A DNA stretch of 64,000 nt, the filler included. It is 3 parts of 3 records of this genome, joined end to end, with 100 filler letters (N's around TTAATTAATTAA, not from the genome) between each part and the next. Parts side by side here need not be neighbours in the genome. Positions count along the whole stretch, not along the records: positions 1 to 28,986 come from SRR20825006_1318; 2 more parts are not named here. One strand, written 5' to 3'. The position numbers were made by a program, and so were the translations under genes. How positions within the stretch are numbered: the stretch's first letter is position 1; each line of letters begins with the position of its first letter. The notes beneath the pieces were generated by a model. That model was not told the origin of the DNA and did not search any database. It saw nothing but the letters and a program-made list of their open reading frames with translations. Shown piece by piece: positions 15,028-64,000 of the stretch.

Positions 15028-15702
15028 TCACAACGCTCCTCGCGAAGCCAGTGACACCCAGCCACCATCACCGATTACCAGATGGTCTAACACTCGGACC
15101 TCCACCAATCCTAGCGCCTCCACCAATCGCCGGGTGATGGCATGGTCCGACTGGCTGGGCTCGGCCACGCCCGATGGGTGATTGTGGGCCAGGATCACGG
15201 CCGCGGCGTTGTGCTCCATGGCCCTACGCACCACTTCCCGCGGATAAACCGCCGCCGCATCGATGGTGCCCTGAAACAACTTCTCAAAGGCGATCAGGCG
15301 ATGCTTATTATCCAGGAACAGGCAAGCGAACACCTCAAACGGTAACCCGCGCAACTGGGCCATAAGCAGTTGCCCGGCCTTGTCCGGGTTATCCAGCGGC
15401 TGACCGCGCTCCAGAGGCTCCGCCAGATAGCGTCGCCCCAGCTCCAGCGCCGCCAGCAACAGCGCCCGCCGGGCAGTCCCCATACCCGGCAAATGCGCCA
15501 TGCGCTCCGGGCTCAGGTCCAGCATGGCCCGCAAACCGCCGCTGCCCGCCAACTGCCGGCGCGCCAGATCCACCGCCGTCATGCCCTGCTGGCCAGTACG
15601 CAGAAAGATCGCCAACAGCTCGGCATCACTAAGCGCCCCGGCACCCCGCACCAACAATTTCTCACGCGGCCGCTCATCCGTCGGCCAGTCTGTTATGGCC
15701 AC
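15028..15702 (-). CDS. radC: RadC (JAB/MPN domain) protein
   Basis: [34 protein letters not shown]. Confidence 0.95.
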
Positions 15703-15705
15703 AGG

Positions 15706-15741
15706 AACGCTCCACGCACCATGCCCGCGCGCAACACGGAA
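15706..15741 (+). repeat. Heptamer array A (left arm around the four-helix-bundle gene)
   Basis: AACGCTC CACGCAC CATGCCC g CGCGCAA CACGGAA. Confidence 0.65.
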
Positions 15742-15751
15742 AAATCACACA

Positions 15752-16102
15752 TCACTTTGCCTCCAGCTTTCTCAACATGCCCGACAGAAGGGCAAACACT
15801 TTTTCGATCATGGGTTTCAGATCCTCTTTCCCGCCATACCCAAGACGCTCCGCCACCATAAGCTGTGTCTCCAGCTCAAAGAGCGACCCTCTCGCAATGC
15901 GCAGGAAGCGCCTGAACTCCACATCACCACCCCGTCCATAGCCTTCCGCAATATTGGACGGCACACTCAGGCCGGCTCGCTGCATCTGCGACGCCAGCCC
16001 GAAAATCTCCCCTTGAGGAAACCCGCGCGACAGTCCATACGTAGCCACAGCCAGCTCCATCGCCGCCTGCCACACTCGCAATTCCTTATATCGCCGGCTC
16101 AA
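15752..16102 (-). CDS. Four-helix-bundle protein (TIGR02436 / 23S-IVS-protein family, structurally Avd-like)
   Basis: LRVWQAA, FP..E.FGL.SQM.RA..SVPSNIAEG..R, F.RFL.IARGSL.ELETQL; GGAGGT SD before the TTG start. Confidence 0.92.
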   Translation of the reverse strand: MSRRYKELRVWQAAMELAVATYGLSRGFPQGEIFGLASQMQRAGLSVPSNIAEGYGRGGDVEFRRFLRIARGSLFELETQLMVAERLGYGGKEDLKPMIEKVFALLSGMLRKLEAK

Positions 16103-16132
16103 AACTCACCACCTCCGATGTCACATTTTGTT

Positions 16133-16167
16133 TTGCGTGCAGCCTGTTGCGTCCTGCGTGCCGCGTC
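16133..16167 (-). repeat. Heptamer array B (right arm, inverted relative to A)
   Basis: TTGCGTG CAGCCTG TTGCGTC CTGCGTG CCGCGTC, exact 7-bp period. Confidence 0.75.
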
Positions 16168-16272: not shown

Positions 16273-17472
16273 ATGCAACGTCTGATGAACAAACGGGTCC
16301 TGTTGGGCGTCACCGGCGGCATTGCCGCCTATAAAGCCGCTGATCTGGTACGTCGGCTGCAAGATGTGGGCGCCCAAGTACGGGTAGTCATGACCCAGGG
16401 GGCCTGCGAGTTCATCACCCCGCTGACCATGCAGGCCCTGTCCGGCCACCCAGTACACACCACCCTGCTGGACCCCACCGCCGAAGCGGCCATGGGCCAT
16501 ATCGAGCTGGCCCGCTGGGCAGACCTGGTGCTGATTGCCCCCGCGTCCGCCAATTTCATGGCTCGCCTGGCGCACGGCCACGGCAACGACCTGCTCACCA
16601 CCCTGTGCCTGGCCACTGGTGCCCCCATCGCCATTGCCCCGGCCATGAACCAGCAGATGTGGGCTGACCTCAGCACCCAGAAGAACCAGCTGATCCTGCA
16701 GGAAAAGGGCATCACCATTTTCGGCCCGGGCAGCGGCAGCCAGGCCTGTGGAGAAGTGGGTGCCGGGCGCATGATCGAGCCACTGGAGATCATTCAGCAG
16801 GCCGCGGAAGTGTTCGACTACCAGCTGCTCACCGGCAAGCATGTGGTGATTACCGCGGGCCCCACCCGCGAATCCATCGACCCGGTGCGTTACATCACCA
16901 ACAAGAGCTCCGGGAAAATGGGCTTTGCGCTGGCCGAAGCCGCCGCCGAAGCCGGGGCCAAGGTCACCCTGATTGCCGGGCCGGTGTATCTGCCCACCCC
17001 GTCACGGGTAGAGCGCGTGGATGTGGTGCGCGCCGTGGACATGTACGAAACTTGCATGGACGTGGTGGAAAAAGGCTGTGATGTGTTTATCGCCACCGCC
17101 GCCGTGGCCGATTACCGGCCCACCGTGACCGCTGACCACAAGATCAAGAAATCCACCGAGGAAATTCACCTGACGCTGGTGAAAAACCCGGACATCGTGG
17201 CGTCCGTGGCCGAGCACGCCAAGCGCCCCTTTACCGTGGGCTTTGCCGCGGAAACCCAGGACGTGATGGCCTACGCCCAGGGCAAGCTGGTTAACAAGAA
17301 GCTGGACATGATCGCCACCAACGACGTTTCCGGCACCAACGTGGGCTTCAACAGCGACAACAACGCCCTCACGGTGATCTGGCCCAGCGGCCACAAGGTG
17401 CTGCCACTGGCCTCCAAGGCACAGATTGCCAAGCAGCTGATCGAATTGATCGCGATAAGGTATAAAGACTGA
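16273..17472 (+). CDS. coaBC: Bifunctional phosphopantothenoylcysteine decarboxylase/synthetase
   Basis: GVTGGIAAYK, MGHIELARWAD, PAMNQQMW, ITAGPTRESIDPVRYITNKSSGKMG, VGFAAET. Confidence 0.97.
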   Translation: MQRLMNKRVLLGVTGGIAAYKAADLVRRLQDVGAQVRVVMTQGACEFITPLTMQALSGHPVHTTLLDPTAEAAMGHIELARWADLVLIAPASANFMARLAHGHGNDLLTTLCLATGAPIAIAPAMNQQMWADLSTQKNQLILQEKGITIFGPGSGSQACGEVGAGRMIEPLEIIQQAAEVFDYQLLTGKHVVITAGPTRESIDPVRYITNKSSGKMGFALAEAAAEAGAKVTLIAGPVYLPTPSRVERVDVVRAVDMYETCMDVVEKGCDVFIATAAVADYRPTVTADHKIKKSTEEIHLTLVKNPDIVASVAEHAKRPFTVGFAAETQDVMAYAQGKLVNKKLDMIATNDVSGTNVGFNSDNNALTVIWPSGHKVLPLASKAQIAKQLIELIAIRYKD

Positions 17473-17473
17473 C

Positions 17474-17540
17474 AAAGCAACACGCACCACGCTTCATGCA
17501 CCACGCCGCCTGTTGCGTGAAGCGTGCCGCGTGATGCATG
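17474..17540. repeat. Heptamer inverted-repeat hairpin with no cargo, between coaBC and dut
   Basis: AAAGCAA CACGCAC CACGCTT CATGCAC CACGCCG then (CCGCCTG) TTGCGTG AAGCGTG CCGCGTG ATGCATG. Confidence 0.8.
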
Positions 17541-21632: not shown

Positions 21633-21635
<3 letters not shown>

Positions 21636-21789
21636 TTGAAAGATGAAAGTTCAAAGTTGAAAGCGCGCCAAACGTGTTTTTGGTTTTTAACGGCAGCAGC
21701 CCGCGCCCTTACCGGCAATCGCGGGCACGCCCCTGCAAAATCCACAGACTCAAACCGCGTTTCAACTTTAAACTTTTCACTTTCAACTA
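21633..21789. repeat. Second-family heptamer inverted-repeat element (GTTGAAA units)
   Basis: TA-GTTGAAA-GATGAAA-GTTCAAA-GTTGAAA-GCGCG ... CGCG-TTTCAAC-TTTAAAC-TTTTCAC-TTTCAAC-TA. Confidence 0.85.
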
Positions 21790-28986: not shown

Positions 28987-29086
28987 NNNNNNNNNNNNNN
29001 NNNNNNNNNNNNNNNNNNNNNNNNNNNNNNTTAATTAATTAANNNNNNNNNNNNNNNNNNNNNNNNNNNNNNNNNNNNNNNNNNNN
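28987..29086. other. Artificial contig linker
   Basis: N44-TTAATTAATTAA-N44; stops in all six frames; gene families and codon style change across it. Confidence 0.98.
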
Positions 29087-57897: not shown

Positions 57898-57997
57898 NNN
57901 NNNNNNNNNNNNNNNNNNNNNNNNNNNNNNNNNNNNNNNNNTTAATTAATTAANNNNNNNNNNNNNNNNNNNNNNNNNNNNNNNNNNNNNNNNNNNN
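57898..57997. other. Artificial contig linker
   Basis: N44-TTAATTAATTAA-N44. Confidence 0.98.
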
Positions 57998-58825
57998 ATA
58001 GGGCATCAGCACGGTCTGGGTGACGCCACGCTCACGGCCGAGGCCGATATTGACCATGGCCCCGAGAGCCGGTGTGCTCTCAAGCGGGTCCGACGGCGCA
58101 AGAGCCGCGTCGGTCACAGCCGCCGCGCCACGCCGGATAGCCTCCGCGTCGAGCCCGACGATCATGGCCGGCAGCAAACCGTTCAGGGTCAGGCCGGAAT
58201 AACGCCCGCCAATAGCCGGATCATGATCCAGACACCGGCACCCGATCTTCTCCGCGAACTGGCGGAGCGGGCGCGGGCCCGGTTCGGTGACCGTGATGAA
58301 ATGCTGCGCCGGATCGAGTCCCGCCGCGACAAACGCATCATGGCAAATCAGGGTCTGACACAATGTCTCCGCCGTGCCGCCGGATTTGGAGATGGCGATC
58401 ACAGCCGTCTTCTCCAGCGCGATGCGCCGGAAGATCGAAGTGAAGGTCGCCGGGTCGATATTGTCGAGGAAATGCAGCTTTGGCGCATCCGGAGAGAAGG
58501 CCGTGCCCTTCTCCGCCAGCCGACAGATCGTCGCCCCGCCGAGACTGGAGCCGCCAATGCCGAGCACCAGCACGTGCCGGGCCCAGCCGCGCAGTTCCTG
58601 CGCCAGTGCCCTGCCTGCTTCCAGATCGTCCCGCCGCCAGGGCAGCGAGAGCAGCGGCAGAGCCCCGCTCTCCTTCTTCTCCCGAAGGCCTGCAAGCGAC
58701 GAGGCGGCGGCCGGAGCCAATGCCTGAAGAGCGGCAAAGGAGAGACCGGCATCGCCGAGCCGGTCCTCGGATGTCGCGGAAAAATCATGCCGGAGCGGGC
58801 CGGCCACCAAGGGACACGTTTTCAT
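57998..58825 (-). CDS. pgi: Glucose-6-phosphate isomerase, N-terminal part (3' truncated)
   Basis: LGIGGSSLG, DNIDP, ISKSGGTAET, IGGRYS. Confidence 0.9.
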
Positions 58826-58909
58826 AGTACTCGAATCTAGCAGATGCCCGGAGCCGGAACCACCATCCGAACAGGGCTGTTAAGCATATAATCGCATTTG
58901 GCCCGTGCT

Positions 58910-60268
58910 TCAGGATCTCGGTTCAGGCGCCGACGCCGTGGGCGTCACGCCCTTTGGCTGGCCAACCACGGAAAAGGTCAGCTCGTCCGCCAGAAACAGC
59001 CGCTTCGCCACCCGCTTCAAATCCGCCATCGTGACCGCATTGATCCGCTCAACCCGCCCGTCCAGATAATCGATGGGCCGCCCGTTCCGCTGCAGTGAGA
59101 CCAGCAACCCGGCAATCGGCCGGGAACTCGTCAGGCGCATCGGGAAAGAGCCGTTGAGATATGTCTTGGCGTCGCTCACTTCTTCTTCGGTCGGCCCGTT
59201 CGCCGCCATCTCCGCCCAGATCTCGCGCACAAGCCCCACCGTCTCGGCGACCTTGTCATTCCGGGTCGAGACCCCGCCCATCACCAGCTCCGTGTCTTCA
59301 AGGGGGAGCGTGTAGGCATAGATGCCGTATGTCAGGCCGCGTTTCTCACGAATTTCCTCGGTCAGGCGGGAGCCGAAACCACCGGCCATGACTTCCATCA
59401 GGATGGCGGCGGCGAACCTGTCCGGATCATCCCGCGCGATGCCGCGATGGCCGAACACGACGACCGATTGCGGCACCGGGCTCTCGACCACGAAGGTCTC
59501 CCCGATGGCTGCCGGTTTCGCCGGCACCGGCGGAATCGAAACACCCGTCTCCGGCAAAGCCCCGAAGGTCCTGTCCAGCAGGGTGCCCAGTCGCTCCGAC
59601 GTGATATCGCCGACAACGCCGATCTTCATCCCGCTCCGGGTCAGCACCCGATTGGCGAAAGCCTTCATGTCTTCCGTTGTGATCCGCCCGACACTGTCCA
59701 CAGTGCCCCGGGAGGGACGGCCATAGGGATGGTCCGGGAAAGCCGCCTGCCACCAGACCCGGCTGACGATGGTCTGCGGCCGGTTCTCGCTGCGCTTCAG
59801 CCCGGCGATGATCTGCGCCCGGATACGCTCCACCGGCTCGGCATCGAACCGCGGCTCTGTCATGGCCAGCCGCAGCAGCTCAAAGGCCGTATCGGTATTT
59901 TCGGTCAGGGTCTGCAGGCTGGCGCCGAAATTGTCCTGGCCCGCACTGAAGCCAAGACCGATCACCAGATCCTCCAGCTTGCGCCGGAAAGCATCGCTGT
60001 CATAGGACCCGGCGCCTTCATCCAGCAGGCTGGAGGTCAGCACGGCGAGACCTTCCTTGCCTTCCGGATCTGCCGCCGCACCGCCTTCAAAACTGGCGGA
60101 GAGCGTGATGATCGGGTTCTTGTGATCCTCGACCAGCCAGGCCTCGATGCCGCCGGGGCTGACCACACGCTGGATCTCGATGGCCTCCGCCATGCCCGGC
60201 CGTACCAGCAGGAGGGTGGCGAAAACCAGAAACGGGACAGAAGCCCGTGCAAATAGGGTCCGCATCAT
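58910..60268 (-). CDS. M16 family peptidase, non-catalytic subunit
   Basis: SPGGIEAWLVED, GLA...SLLDEGAG (no HXXEH), SRLTEEIREKRGLTYG. Confidence 0.9.
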   Translation of the reverse strand: MMRTLFARASVPFLVFATLLLVRPGMAEAIEIQRVVSPGGIEAWLVEDHKNPIITLSASFEGGAAADPEGKEGLAVLTSSLLDEGAGSYDSDAFRRKLEDLVIGLGFSAGQDNFGASLQTLTENTDTAFELLRLAMTEPRFDAEPVERIRAQIIAGLKRSENRPQTIVSRVWWQAAFPDHPYGRPSRGTVDSVGRITTEDMKAFANRVLTRSGMKIGVVGDITSERLGTLLDRTFGALPETGVSIPPVPAKPAAIGETFVVESPVPQSVVVFGHRGIARDDPDRFAAAILMEVMAGGFGSRLTEEIREKRGLTYGIYAYTLPLEDTELVMGGVSTRNDKVAETVGLVREIWAEMAANGPTEEEVSDAKTYLNGSFPMRLTSSRPIAGLLVSLQRNGRPIDYLDGRVERINAVTMADLKRVAKRLFLADELTFSVVGQPKGVTPTASAPEPRS

Positions 60269-60275
60269 ATTTTCC

Positions 60276-61622
60276 TCAGCTTGCCGGTTTCGGGCGCAGG
60301 ATGCTTGTGACGTGCGCAGGCGTTTCCAGAACGTCCCGCGCCGCCTGCATGACCTGTTCCAGTGTCACCGCACCAACCTGGTCCGGCCAGCTTTCGATAT
60401 CGTCAATTGTGCGTCCGATGGCGAGCGCCTGCCCCACGGCATGGGCCGGTGCGGTCACGCTGTCCCGGGCATAGACCGCGCTGGCCTTCATCGATTTGAC
60501 CGCGCGTGCGACTTCCTGCGCATCGACACCGTCACGCAGAATGGCGGCAAGTTCCGCCTCGAAGGCCGCTTCAAGCTTTTCAACGGCGACTCCCTCGGCG
60601 GGCACGCCATAAAAAGAGAACGTGCCGGGTCCGATGCTGCTCCCGCTATAAGACGCACCGGCAGAAAGGGCGATCTTCCGGTCGATCACCAGCGCCTTGT
60701 AGAGCCGGCTGGTTGCCCCGCCGCCAATCACTTCCGCCAGCACGGCGAGCGGCATGGCCTGATCGCTTGCGCCATAGAACTGGCTCGGCGCCAGATAACG
60801 GCGGCTCCAGCTGACCTGGCCGACCTGCGGATGGGCAAACTCAATGCGGCGGGCGCTGATCTGCTCCGGCTCCAGCGGACGGTTGCGGTCCGGTACGGCG
60901 CGGGCGGGGATCACACCGTAATATTTCTCCGCCAGCGGCTTCAACTCATCCATGGTGATGTCGCCCGCAACCACCAGCACGGCGTTATTCGGGGCATACC
61001 ATTTGCGATAGAAGGCCAGCGCGTTCTCGCGGGTCAGCGCCTTGATCTCATGCGCCCAGCCGATCAGCGGATGGCGATAGGGGTAGTTGAGATAAAGCGC
61101 CGCGTTGGTCCGCTCGTTCAACAACGCGCCCGGGCTGTTGTCGATCCGGGAGCGGCGTTCTTCCAGCACCACCTCGCGTTCCGCCGCGACCTCGTCCGGG
61201 TCCAGCGTCAGGTTCACCATGCGGTCCGCTTCCATCTCCATCATCAGCGGCAGCTTGTCCGAGGCGATGGTCTGGAAGAAAGCGGTGTAATCGTAGCCGG
61301 TGAAGGCATTGCCCTCCCCGCCATTACGGGAGACGGTGCGGGAGAACTCGCCCGAGGGCACTTTCTCCGTGCCCTTGAAGAGAAGGTGCTCAAGAAAATG
61401 TGCCAGCCCTGTCTCGCCCGGCGCCTCGTCCGCCCCGCCGACCTTGTACCAGACCATATGGGTTACCACCGGCACCCGGTGATCGGTGATGGCGACCACC
61501 TGCATGCCGTTCGCCAGCGTGATGCTCTCGGGCTCGTAGACTTTCGCATCCGCCCGCCCGGCGATCATGACGACACATACCATCGCCAGGGTCAGCCGCT
61601 TCGCGATCGCCAATGATTTCAC
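60276..61622 (-). CDS. M16 family zinc peptidase, catalytic subunit
   Basis: WYKVGGADE..G.TGLAHFLEHLLFKGT (HXXEH); signal peptide; GGAG RBS before GTG 61622. Confidence 0.93.
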   Translation of the reverse strand: MKSLAIAKRLTLAMVCVVMIAGRADAKVYEPESITLANGMQVVAITDHRVPVVTHMVWYKVGGADEAPGETGLAHFLEHLLFKGTEKVPSGEFSRTVSRNGGEGNAFTGYDYTAFFQTIASDKLPLMMEMEADRMVNLTLDPDEVAAEREVVLEERRSRIDNSPGALLNERTNAALYLNYPYRHPLIGWAHEIKALTRENALAFYRKWYAPNNAVLVVAGDITMDELKPLAEKYYGVIPARAVPDRNRPLEPEQISARRIEFAHPQVGQVSWSRRYLAPSQFYGASDQAMPLAVLAEVIGGGATSRLYKALVIDRKIALSAGASYSGSSIGPGTFSFYGVPAEGVAVEKLEAAFEAELAAILRDGVDAQEVARAVKSMKASAVYARDSVTAPAHAVGQALAIGRTIDDIESWPDQVGAVTLEQVMQAARDVLETPAHVTSILRPKPAS

Positions 61623-61724
61623 TGTCAGTCTCCTGCCTCCGGTAACGGAGCGTTCCGGTATCCGATCATCCGAGATATGGAAAAATTTACGGCATGAACA
61701 AGGCACTCCGGTCAGAGTGCCGTT

Positions 61725-62459
61725 TCAGGGCAGATCAAAACCATGCGCCAAGAGCACCGTCTGTCCCTCGGAGCCGAGGATGAAATCCCGCAATCCCGTC
61801 GCCTGTTCGGGAGCATTCTTCATCACCGTGATGCCGTATTCCGCGCCAACGCGCAGGGCTTCCGGCACTTCCACGATCTGAAGCCCCGTCACCTCGCGTG
61901 CGGCGAGGACGGCATTAGTCCTGTAGGTCAGGAACAGATCCGTCCGTCCCTGCTCCAGCATCCAGCCATAGAGGTTGCGTCCTCCCGGCACCGGGGCCGA
62001 AATTGACCCGCCCGTCAGTTTCTGTGCCTTGGCATCCAGGGTCTCGTACGCTCCGGGCCGGATCACGCCGGCTTTCTGGAACAGCCGCCAGGCATAATCG
62101 CCGGACGGATCCGCGTCCGGCGTGGAGGTTCCGACCCGAATGTCCGGATCGAGGAGCGTTTCCAGCAGAGTATCGCTTTCCGCCACGATCCCCGCACGGA
62201 CGATCGCCACAAGCTCGTTCCGGGCAAACAGTCTTGTACGCCCGGCCAGACCGCGCCGGTGCAGCACACGGGGATGCTCCATGTCGGCCGAGGCGAACAG
62301 ATCGGCCCGTGCACCGGTTTCAATGCGTTTCCGCATCAGGCCGGACGGTCCGAAACTCATATCGACGGGCCTCCCCGTCGTCTGTTCGAACCGCGAGCAG
62401 ATATCCTGAAGCACGGCTGCGAGGCTTCCCGCGGCGAAAAAAACAAGACGATCAGGCAT
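61725..62459 (-). CDS. ModA-like molybdate/oxyanion-binding protein
   Basis: AAGSL, FGPSGL, ADLFASADM, FARN, STPDADPSGDYAW, YRTN, GAEYG. Confidence 0.85.
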   Translation of the reverse strand: MPDRLVFFAAGSLAAVLQDICSRFEQTTGRPVDMSFGPSGLMRKRIETGARADLFASADMEHPRVLHRRGLAGRTRLFARNELVAIVRAGIVAESDTLLETLLDPDIRVGTSTPDADPSGDYAWRLFQKAGVIRPGAYETLDAKAQKLTGGSISAPVPGGRNLYGWMLEQGRTDLFLTYRTNAVLAAREVTGLQIVEVPEALRVGAEYGITVMKNAPEQATGLRDFILGSEGQTVLLAHGFDLP

Positions 62460-62475
62460 GATCGAGACCGTCGGC

Positions 62476-63066
62476 CTAGAACAGCCCCTTGCGCTTGCGC
62501 TCAATGACCGGCGTGGTGCCCGCTGTCGGCTCGTTGCCGAGGGCCGCGTTTTCCTGCAGGCGCTTCTGCTCCGCCTGGGCATCGACAACCACGCCGCGCG
62601 GAGCCTTCTCACGCCAGAAAAGCAGATTGTCGATCAGATATTCCTCTTCGTAGAGGAAGGTGCTGGTTTCCCGGTTCACCGTCTGGCGGATACCCGGCTC
62701 GGCACTGGCGGTATTCAGCAATTGCCGCATCTTCGCTTCGCCCGGCGTTTCCCGCGAAACAGCCGTGCTCGGTGCCGAAGCAGGCACATTCCCGGCGGTA
62801 CCGGATACCGTACTCCGGGTGCCGTTACCCAGCACCAGCCGCTCCGCACTCTTCGTCACGTCGCGTTCCTGCGGGCGCGGCTCGCCTGGGGTCGGCGGGC
62901 GCAGGGCAAAGTTCGGCGGCACGCTGAGCGGCGGCCGCGCAACCACGGCGAACTCATCCGGTGCCTGCTTTGTGTTGCCGACTGCTTTCTGGATTTCGCT
63001 GCACCCCTGCAAGCCGATCACCACGGCGCAGAGGGTGAAGCCGACAGTACGACTGACCCTGATCAT
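62476..63066 (-). CDS. DUF3035 family lipoprotein
   Basis: Lipobox LQGC; K.APDEFAVV.RPPL.VPP.F.LRPP.PG.PRPQE; follows lspA. Confidence 0.85.
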   Translation of the reverse strand: MIRVSRTVGFTLCAVVIGLQGCSEIQKAVGNTKQAPDEFAVVARPPLSVPPNFALRPPTPGEPRPQERDVTKSAERLVLGNGTRSTVSGTAGNVPASAPSTAVSRETPGEAKMRQLLNTASAEPGIRQTVNRETSTFLYEEEYLIDNLLFWREKAPRGVVVDAQAEQKRLQENAALGNEPTAGTTPVIERKRKGLF

Positions 63067-63097
63067 TCCATGCTACTCCGGTCGATGGCTATCCCGT

Positions 63098-63616
63098 TCA
63101 TTCTCCGTCTCCCCTGGATATCTGGGAATCCGAACTCTGCGAGTCACCAAGAAAGCTATCAAACAATAAAAATACTACGCCAACCGATATCGCACTATCG
63201 GCAAGATTAAAAGCTGGCCAGTGATATCCGAACGCATGCCAGTCAATGAAATCGACAACCGCATTATAGCGCAACCGGTCAATCACATTCCCGATCGCCC
63301 CGCCGATGATCAGGCCAAGCGAAATCCGCAGCAATTGAGTGGGCGCCCGTGCCAGCCAGACCGTAAGCCCGATCACAACGGCGACAGCGAACCCGGACAG
63401 GTAGAAAGGCGTCATCGGATCGTCACTCGCCAGCAGGCCGAAACTGACACCCCGGTTCCAGACGGCGACCAGATTGAAAAACGGCGTCACCTCGACCACC
63501 GCTCCGTCACGGAACAATGTCGCCAGCGCCCATTCCTTGGTCACCTGATCGGCAAGCACCACCAGCAGAGCCAGTAGCCCGCCGGTCACAAGGTTGCGTT
63601 TCAACGAGCCCGGCAC
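63098..63616 (-). CDS. lspA: Lipoprotein signal peptidase II
   Basis: DQVTK, NRGVSFG, GGAIGNVIDR, VVDFI, WPAFNLADSAI. Confidence 0.96.
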   Translation of the reverse strand: MPGSLKRNLVTGGLLALLVVLADQVTKEWALATLFRDGAVVEVTPFFNLVAVWNRGVSFGLLASDDPMTPFYLSGFAVAVVIGLTVWLARAPTQLLRISLGLIIGGAIGNVIDRLRYNAVVDFIDWHAFGYHWPAFNLADSAISVGVVFLLFDSFLGDSQSSDSQISRGDGE

Positions 63617-63619
63617 CGG

Positions 63620-64000
63620 TTATTCAGCCGCGGTTTCGAGCGAGCCGACCGCGTCCGCGCAGCGTTTGCAAACCGGCGGCTCGACAACCTCGGGCAGAAT
63701 TTTCCAGCACCGCTCGCATTTTCCGCCGTCGGCCAGGGCCGGTACCACGGAGATACCTTCCACATCATCCAGCCGGAAAGCGTCGTCAGGGCCGGAGCCG
63801 GCGAGCAGCGTGGCATCGGACGTGATGAAAAGCTCGGCCGGGTCCAGCCCGTCGAATGCCTTCAGTGCGGCATCGCTGACGAAAACCTGCGGGGCCGCCT
63901 GCAGGGAAGACCCGATACGCTTCGCGTTGCGTTCCAGCTCCAGCGCGCCGGTGACGACACGGCGGACATTCCGGATCTCGGCCCAGCGTGCCGCGACCGC
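63620..64000 (-). CDS. ileS: Isoleucine-tRNA ligase, C-terminal part (not in the ORF track; 5' truncated)
   Basis: Manual translation ...RRVVTGALELERNAKRIGSSLQAA...KCERCWKILPEV...CKRCADAV...AAE*; directly upstream of lspA. Confidence 0.95.
   Translation of the reverse strand, partial: AVAARWAEIRNVRRVVTGALELERNAKRIGSSLQAAPQVFVSDAALKAFDGLDPAELFITSDATLLAGSGPDDAFRLDDVEGISVVPALADGGKCERCWKILPEVVEPPVCKRCADAVGSLETAAE

Follow-up and report, generated by a model that had tools for sequence, protein, structure and literature searches.

Between radC and coaBC, the window (the whole 64-kb stretch of DNA analyzed here) has a cassette that is apparently one copy of a widespread, exchangeable gene-plus-hairpin package otherwise described only inside rRNA genes. 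Among known systems, it is closest to the ORF-bearing 23S rRNA intervening sequence (IVS) and is best regarded as a variant of it located outside rRNA. We consider it probable, with some reserve, that the ORF and its two flanking arms form an IVS-type hairpin cassette, in which a PF05635 gene lies within inverted arrays of 7-nt units and the whole is transcribed with a host gene, processed by RNase III at its stem, and spread by way of its arms. Transcription together with the host gene would here take place in the radC leader, and the arms would zip into a long stem enclosing the ORF; by analogy with the rRNA-borne members, this stem may be an RNase III substrate, such that cleavage would set the ORF RNA free and reduce damage to the transcript of the host gene. 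Cassettes are predicted to spread horizontally into existing arrays through recombination in the arms, the complementarity of which is probably upheld mainly by homogenization at the DNA level.

The PF05635/TIGR02436 proteins form a large, conserved family of solved structure to which no function has been assigned other than in DGRs, and if it is true that gene, arms, and solo hairpins constitute one system, then the puzzles of family function and of heptamer excess can be tested jointly. Cassettes are also located within operons and gene leaders, where the long stem could affect expression, for example of radC, and their arms fragment assemblies and can lead annotation astray.

The cassette between radC and coaBC

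The four-helix-bundle gene reported in the first-pass annotation is located at 15752-16102 on the minus strand and codes for a 116-aa protein, and the assignment is supported by matches to both PF05635 (E = 8.2e-34; bit score 116.5, cut-off 33.8; positions 1-98 of a 106-position profile) and TIGR02436 (E = 1.2e-31; bit score 109.2, cut-off 24; positions 1-108 of a 109-position profile). It has a TTG start preceded by a GGAGG ribosome-binding site, and residues 3 to 113 of the product match chain 2gsc_A of the PDB (E = 6.7e-25), 2GSC being a solved Xanthomonas protein whose entry has five chains. The cassette protein is under purifying selection, with dN/dS values of 0.10 to 0.15 for the window ORF relative to alleles L119, L120, and L121, and of 0.02 to 0.15 for cassette ORFs overall (11 estimable pairs; four further pairs are synonymously saturated and are left out). 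A PADLOC search gives no match for the cassette protein.

The radC gene (15028-15702, minus strand; Pfam RadC, E = 6.2e-45) is downstream of the cassette ORF and transcribed in the same direction, and coaBC (16273-17472, plus strand; Pfam DFP and Flavoprotein) is the divergent neighbor across the spacer. The ORF stop codon is 49 nt before the radC GTG, and the cassette therefore lies within the radC leader, with its left arm containing the radC GGAG ribosome-binding site. The cassette had been said to interrupt a normally adjacent divergent pair, and this agrees with 32 of 36 more distant loci holding both genes, in which the radC/coaBC start-to-start distance is 31 to 182 nt, without a homologue of the cassette gene. 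A scan based on the RadC protein places the locus in Alcanivorax; G001 and its genus were rejected as kin of the window, as the radC/coaBC DNA matches only in fragments of 52 to 151 nt.

Nine neighboring genes between 12.8 and 22.5 kb, described as housekeeping genes, were scanned with Pfam and code for L33, L28, a metallophosphatase, RadC, CoaBC, a dUTPase, a phosphomannomutase, an amino-acid kinase, and one product without a Pfam family. PF05635 is the Pfam family commonest in DGR neighborhoods and is stated to resemble the DGR accessory protein Avd, with which the cassette protein shares a homologous four-helix-bundle fold (accessible text of PMC10053308). Unlike in a DGR, however, none of the nine scanned neighbors is a reverse transcriptase, in agreement with the earlier claim that there is none nearby, and heptamer arms are not a described DGR feature. 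The claim that no rRNA gene is nearby also holds, with no Rfam family, rRNA included, reaching its gathering score anywhere in the 64-kb window. At E values up to 10, Rfam gives only two chance-level matches between 15000 and 16800. For three Alcanivorax loci, it gives one sub-threshold miRNA match. A promoter scan of the radC-coaBC spacer gives no sites, and the two terminator-like sites in the spacer (0.8 expected) both lie away from the arms.

On the gene strand, the 5′ arm (16133-16167, minus strand) is upstream of the GGAGG and TTG of the ORF and is a clear (CACGCAN)5 array, its five heptamers, as originally annotated, being GACGCGG, CACGCAG, GACGCAA, CAGGCTG, and CACGCAA. It agrees with (CACGCA)5 at 25 of 30 fixed positions. 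With the two strands of the 64-kb window taken together, no more than three places score as high, namely this arm and the two arms of an ORF-less element at 17474-17540. Its period-7 score (18/28) is within the top 0.03% of window positions, and it is kept as an array in alleles L041, L042, L050, L045, and L047. The 3′ arm (15706-15741, minus strand) contains NTGCGTG-type heptamers and overlaps the radC ribosome-binding site, and the five units described there are recovered only if a 1-nt slip is allowed: AACGCTC, CACGCAC, CATGCCC, a single G at the slip, CGCGCAA, and CACGGAA then match at 24 of 30 positions, but at only 14 of 30 in strict 7-nt register. The period-7 score of this arm is 16/28 (top 0.16% of window positions), and better-kept versions are present in L041 and L042. 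With up to three mismatches, (CACGCAN)x3 has nine matches in the window versus 0.14 expected, a number reached in 0 of 100 shuffles; these are located on the 5′ arm and on 17474-17540, with none on the 3′ arm.

The two arms had been presented as reverse complements of each other, and this stands as the design of the family, whereas pairing in the window's own copy is at background level. The local alignment score of the window arms is 18, compared to a cross-locus mean of 18.4, and an inverted-repeat search finds no more than a 12-nt match at 83% and a 10-nt match at 90%. The minimum-energy fold does pair the 3′ arm with the 5′ arm across the ORF, with a z-score of -1.71 for the whole cassette. 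By RNAduplex, the terminal stem around the ORF has z-scores of -4.7 in L042 and -2.2 in L041, but -0.53 in the window copy, for which 148 of 500 shuffles are equally good. The window copy is an intact gene with worn arms, and the observation is thus genuine for the class, of which this is a worn example; the window alone would not prove the point that the first-pass annotation made from it. The non-significant complementarity of these arms is what would be expected if the heptamers were a coincidence of GC-rich intergenic sequence, but this explanation has next to no chance of being correct, as the score of the 5′ arm recurs only at element arms, the pattern matches far exceed expectation, and orthologous alleles hold better arms at the same positions, such that it is contradicted by the comparative data.

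Inverted heptamer arrays in the PF05635 family

Comparison of gene flanks shows the inverted heptamer-array design to be a property of the whole PF05635 gene family. The 74 loci compared constitute three sets, with 30 loci from an unrelated order around G001, 29 from Pseudomonadota (201 genomes sampled, 32 with a PF05635 match), and 15 from Alcanivorax, including the window. The period-7 check proposed in the first-pass annotation gives a periodicity of at least 20/28 in 68 of 146 flanks, with a period of 7 in 63 of these 68, compared to 7 of 140 control segments 700 to 900 nt away. The heptamer unit varies among loci, yet there is an inverted match between the two flanks of each locus: the median score of an upstream flank against its own reverse-complemented downstream flank is 33 to 36.5 in the three sets, versus 16 for cross-locus pairs, and the flank pair exceeds the cross-locus 95th percentile at 27 of 30, 17 of 27, and 7 of 15 loci, respectively. 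With regard to the suggestion that the protein may recognize the repeats, L172 and L176 code for proteins that are 93% identical and have units differing at two of seven positions. The presence of this layout in unrelated genomes, together with the presence/absence variation of the spacer described below, supports the claim that arms and gene form a single cassette.

The complementary part of the arms begins a median of 7.5 to 12 nt past the stop codon and has a median length of 33 nt (∼4.7 units). This length, the five units in each of the window arms, and the five chains of the 2GSC entry, which is called a homopentamer (PMC4990558, in its accessible part), all agree with an earlier suggestion that the five heptamers of an arm are read by a homopentameric ring, with one unit per subunit. 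Such a correspondence is nonetheless very unlikely and finds no support across the family, as the complementary part ranges from 19 to 74 nt, the arms of one cassette are often unequal in unit number (5 versus 11 in L134, and at least 9 versus ∼4 in L122), and solo arrays reach dozens of units.

The helix-45 IVS of Coxiella burnetii 23S rRNA, as described in the accessible part of PMC4990558, contains an S23p ORF of the PF05635 family within a 28-bp terminal stem that is cleaved by RNase III in vitro, and has two to three tandem GACAGAT heptamers, variable in number among strains, upstream of the ORF. ORF-less and ORF-decayed IVS forms exist, and Leptospira and other IVS cases are cited in the same paper (PMC4990558). 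In CPR bacteria, the PF05635 family is present in insertions in both 16S and 23S rRNA (bioRxiv 10.1101/2024.02.27.582315, in the part available). The likeness to the ORF-bearing 23S IVS is in the PF05635-family ORF being located in the loop of a terminal-inverted-repeat stem, which applies family-wide, with the window arms at chance level, and the five CACGCAN-type heptamers upstream of the window ORF are similarly reminiscent of the Coxiella GACAGAT units. Unlike the 23S IVS, however, the window cassette is outside rRNA and occupies a protein-coding gene's leader, and other cassettes are between genes of operons; RNase III cutting is known for the rRNA-borne members, from one paper (PMC4990558).

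The first-pass annotation knew of no mechanistic description of such a cassette, and this is correct only in part: the Coxiella 23S IVS, with the same ORF family and a stem cut by RNase III, is one such description (PMC4990558), and no paper generalizing the architecture was found in a search of full-text literature outside subscription journals and supplementary files, which yielded just the Coxiella IVS paper and the paper on Xanthomonas and Nostoc repeats discussed below. The accessible text of the Coxiella paper concerns the upstream direct heptamers of a single species, not family-wide inverted arrays with cassette-specific units (PMC4990558). A lead to the HEPN superfamily was dropped, as PMC3710099 is without any occurrence of IVS, S23, Avd, or four-helix.

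Cassette turnover and arm evolution in Alcanivorax

The radC-coaBC spacer was compared at 18 Alcanivorax-clade loci, the genomes of which represent distinct species, not strains. Relatives had been proposed as the place to look for gene-less alleles, and both presence/absence variation and allele replacement are found among Alcanivorax species: an intact cassette is present in the window and at 5 of the 18 loci, a truncated one or a remnant at 6, and none at 7. The cassette gene of L039 has an internal deletion, the cassettes of L045, L047, and L055 are decayed, L046 has a remnant of another cassette type, and L049 has arms only. The intact cassettes at this site are of two types, with proteins that are ∼47% identical (53.5% in the tblastn local alignment) and units that are related yet different (CACGCAN versus GAYGCCN), and the outermost units of both arms are common to the two types. 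L050 has a window-type cassette and, after it, the 3′ end of a cassette of the other type. The shared outermost units and the composite in L050 thus point to cassette replacement by recombination inside the arms.

As gauged by synonymous divergence, the history of the cassette is decoupled from that of the flanking genes. Between the window and L041, dS is 0.13 for the cassette but 0.72 for radC and 0.31 for coaBC, whereas the window and L040 differ little in radC (dS of 0.17) and coaBC (0.19) and have cassettes of different types, with proteins that are 47% identical. The radC sites with and without a cassette have diverged too far for junctions to be drawn, and no target-site duplication is definable. 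It is reasonable to read the cassette as a selfish or exchangeable element.

There are zero to four PF05635 genes per genome in 15 Alcanivorax genomes, and the cassettes recur at no fewer than four fixed intergenic sites: coaBC|radC, upstream of an ahcY-like gene, upstream of a gene beginning MSSPYQEK, and between a glyA-like gene and nrdR. Several cassette types are found at each, and a cassette may be intact there, replaced by one of another type, decayed, or missing, making this non-pathogenic, culturable genus a natural series of states at four fixed sites. The glyA|nrdR site is represented by 12 orthologous cassettes with GTTAACA, ATTAATA, ATTGATA, or GTTGACA units, in which the protein clusters track the unit type and substitutions are present in every unit of both arms. 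In the RNAalifold alignment of these cassettes, columns 39-69 pair with columns 474-504, giving 28 arm pairs in which 95.8% of cells are paired. Eleven of the 28 pairs have changed on both sides (39 cells), and the covariation score is matched by 0 of 500 shuffles, with slid controls pairing in only 17 to 55% of cells. The glyA|nrdR cassette is kept in most Alcanivorax genomes under strong purifying selection, and this long retention is equally compatible with a useful resident gene and with a selfish one. The four-site allelic series, the compensatory and concerted evolution of the arms, and the polarity of arm composition are new.

This polarity is seen as an excess of G over C in the 5′ arm at 24 of 29 and 23 of 24 loci in two broad samples, and at 6 of 12 loci in Alcanivorax; the window-type 5′ arm is C-rich, contrary to the majority. 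At 53 loci at which both neighbors are callable, albeit by crude ORF-based calls, both are co-directional with the cassette at 35 and both are opposite at 5. The G/C polarity of the 5′ arm argues for constraint at the transcript level, and sense orientation together with a G-rich 5′ arm favors a transcript-level role. Mismatches in the arms have no wobble bias, either at 65 loci (73 G·U-type versus 88 A·C-type, with 200 transversions) or among the 12 glyA|nrdR orthologues (10 G·U versus 10 A·C cells), and the covariation may therefore stem from DNA-level conversion between the arms and not from selection on an RNA stem. Conversion between inverted DNA repeats, combined with slippage, would give concerted change in all units of both arms. 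Taken with this concerted change, the lack of wobble bias means that the covariation shows complementarity to be maintained, but not how. Two public runs contain a relative with the other cassette type, as assembled contigs in which transcript ends are not visible, and an RNA library yields one 4.3-kb contig that covers the stretch, at 63 differences, but, being assembled, is silent on transcription, ends, and processing.

ORF-less hairpins and dispersed heptamer arrays

The window contains two ORF-less elements. The first (17474-17540, plus strand) fills the coaBC-dut spacer with CACGCAN/NTGCGTG units, has (CACGCAN)x3 pattern matches on both strands, and folds at -35.4 kcal/mol (z-score of -5.2; 0 of 200 shuffles equally good). 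The same spacer has different heptamer hairpins in different Alcanivorax species and is merely 12 to 30 nt, without a hairpin, in more distant Alcanivoracaceae. The second (21636-21788, plus strand) is directly 3′ of the stop codon of the amino-acid-kinase gene called by Pfam and is organized as four TTGAAAG-type units, a ∼97-nt loop, and four inverted units; Tandem Repeats Finder reports period 7 at 21634-21663 and 21760-21788, and the element folds at -60.8 kcal/mol (z-score of -6.55).

Similar arrays are dispersed in related genomes. Counts of (CACGCAN)x3, which are inflated by long arrays, are 316, 374, 343, and 802 (39, 50, 29, and 104, respectively, for the reversed-pattern control) in four genomes that have an intact cognate gene and are related to one another, compared to 7 to 160 in eleven genomes without an intact cognate gene. 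Nine of 20 array sites in G062, taken non-randomly from the best-matching hits, are hairpins with an inverted partner, at -35 to -77 kcal/mol. ORF-less hairpins of the cassette units are abundant in the cassette-bearing genomes and dispersed through them, and this link between cassettes and ORF-less heptamer hairpins is new. The reciprocal test with CTACRAG fails, with 305 matches in G269, where the search for PF05635 genes came up empty, and 684 in G065, a genome without the cognate gene, whereas G272 has the cognate gene yet only 10 matches, all of them at the cassette. The array counts are therefore suggestive of solo arrays tracking their cognate gene for CACGCAN and contradict it for CTACRAG, and with the failure of the reciprocal test a cognate autonomous/non-autonomous relationship is not established.

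Such a relationship is central to an alternative in which the cassette is a DNA element, with arms that are recombination or transposition ends, a protein that is an arm-binding factor, and ORF-less hairpins that are MITE-like and mobilized in trans. The higher CACGCAN counts in genomes with the cognate gene, the hairpins at G062 array sites, the species-differing hairpins in coaBC-dut-type spacers, and the small number of PF05635 genes per genome are all consistent with this, as are the lack of G·U bias and the unit changes running through all units of both arms. We nonetheless regard it as unlikely, if still to be reckoned with, as the high-count genomes are mutually related, the CTACRAG test fails, no target-site duplication can be defined, and an element acting purely at the DNA level would not be expected to have either a bias to sense orientation or a G-rich 5′ arm. 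To our knowledge there is also no catalytic domain in the PF05635 family, a further point against a DNA element. The ORF-less elements resemble REP elements and MITEs in being short, dispersed, intergenic hairpin repeats with many more copies than there are protein genes associated with them, but unlike these they have arms of tandem 7-nt units and many sequence families per genome.

Heptameric repeats are over-represented in many bacteria, an excess that is unexplained and for which polymerase slippage has been proposed; Xanthomonas campestris has 186 GGGAATC patterns, 70 of them in inverted pairs, and the Nostoc repeat is GGGGA(C/T)T (Rehm et al., PMC4692102, in its accessible part). Like the arrays described here, these are intergenic 7-nt arrays, often with about four units, that are frequently in convergent inverted pairs and vary in length between close relatives (PMC4692102). 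Unlike in the cassette reading, however, the arrays are treated as quadruplex-forming, and neither "intervening" nor "S23" occurs in the accessible text of that paper (PMC4692102).

The arrays could accordingly be slippage-prone simple repeats, or REP-like hairpins that stabilize or terminate mRNA, with the gene a resident that is regulated by or embedded in them and without mobility as a package. The slippage proposed for Xanthomonas and other genomes (PMC4692102), the variation in unit number between arms and between genomes, and the wide retention of the glyA|nrdR cassette under strong purifying selection lend this some credit, but it is improbable overall. Slippage by itself does not give gene-specific, inversion-matched units on both sides of the gene in unrelated phyla, the cassette history is decoupled from that of the flanking genes, the same site is occupied by different cassette types with different units, and the package is also present within rRNA genes (PMC4990558; bioRxiv 10.1101/2024.02.27.582315).

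A broader extension of the IVS-type hairpin cassette is put forward tentatively. PF05635 cassettes and their ORF-less derivatives may be one widespread hairpin class that is the source of the bacterial heptamer excess, including the Xanthomonas GGGAATC arrays, possibly those of cyanobacteria, and those of Alcanivorax, which number several hundred in each genome; the four-helix-bundle pentamer would act on the arms, and solo hairpins would serve as landing pads for the gene through arm recombination. Among 401 Pseudomonadota genomes, (GGGAATC)x3 is present in one, G320. The only PF05635 gene of this genome, apparently frameshifted, has accB-like and accC-like genes as its neighbors on either side, with GGGAATC-type units on its 5′ side and GATTCCC-type units on its 3′ side.

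Composition of the window

The window consists of three contigs (1-28986, 29087-57897 and 57998-64000) that are artificially joined, since at both junctions (28987-29086 and 57898-57997) two N runs flank a TTAATTAATTAA linker. The GC fractions of these contigs are 0.566, 0.572 and 0.635, respectively. The window has 21% of its words in common with G001, the genome offered as nearest, and the artificial join may be the reason for this level of sharing despite the lack of a match in G001 to the radC locus of the window.

Cassette locations in other genomes

Among the sampled Pseudomonadota, the same operon junctions are occupied by cassettes in different genomes (L139, L141, L143 and L153; L134, L135 and L140). 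At one recurrent junction the cassette lies 5' of a gene starting MAETSVRNFNINFGPQHP, and at the other it separates an acyl-CoA-dehydrogenase-like end from a gene that begins with MTTIAFIGLG. Cassettes that share a junction have units that are different or expanded (e.g., 5 versus 11 units). Five loci from an unrelated order (L008, L013, L014, L021 and L025) have T-arm motifs in the cassette flanks and, judged by these motifs, the cassettes appear to lie between tRNA-like sequences, within stable-RNA precursors. These tRNA-like flanks recall the rRNA location of intervening sequences.

Alcanivorax cassettes and spacers

An alignment of 12 orthologous cassettes at the glyA|nrdR site (L127-L183) contains a GC-rich hairpin followed by TTTT (columns 114-142) that is invariant in all 12, lies in the early part of the ORF, within its first ~25 codons, and is adjoined by variable codons; in sequence, it resembles an intrinsic terminator. 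In two Alcanivorax species (L050 and L051), an additional ORF of ~190 aa is present on the opposite strand between coaBC and radC. The coaBC-dut spacers of L038, L041, L039, L046 and L049 contain elements of 157 to 189 nt with arms of GACGCC-type heptamers and a non-coding core (60 to 100 nt) that itself contains a hairpin. These elements have no match in Rfam, and the arms may therefore bear cargo other than the four-helix-bundle gene.

Array growth and cassette decay

Heptamer arrays can expand far past arm size. Genome G275 contains a perfect CTACGAG tandem array of ~320 nt and ~46 units (C3:204962-205283), at which no PF05635 gene is reported. G320, the sole genome with (GGGAATC)x3 among 401 Pseudomonadota searched, carries a PF05635 cassette (L205, 1450-1930) flanked by accB-like and accC-like genes. 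Its ORF looks frameshifted, because the PF05635 profile match is confined to positions 1-64 of 106; its GGGAATC/GATTCCC arms are retained.
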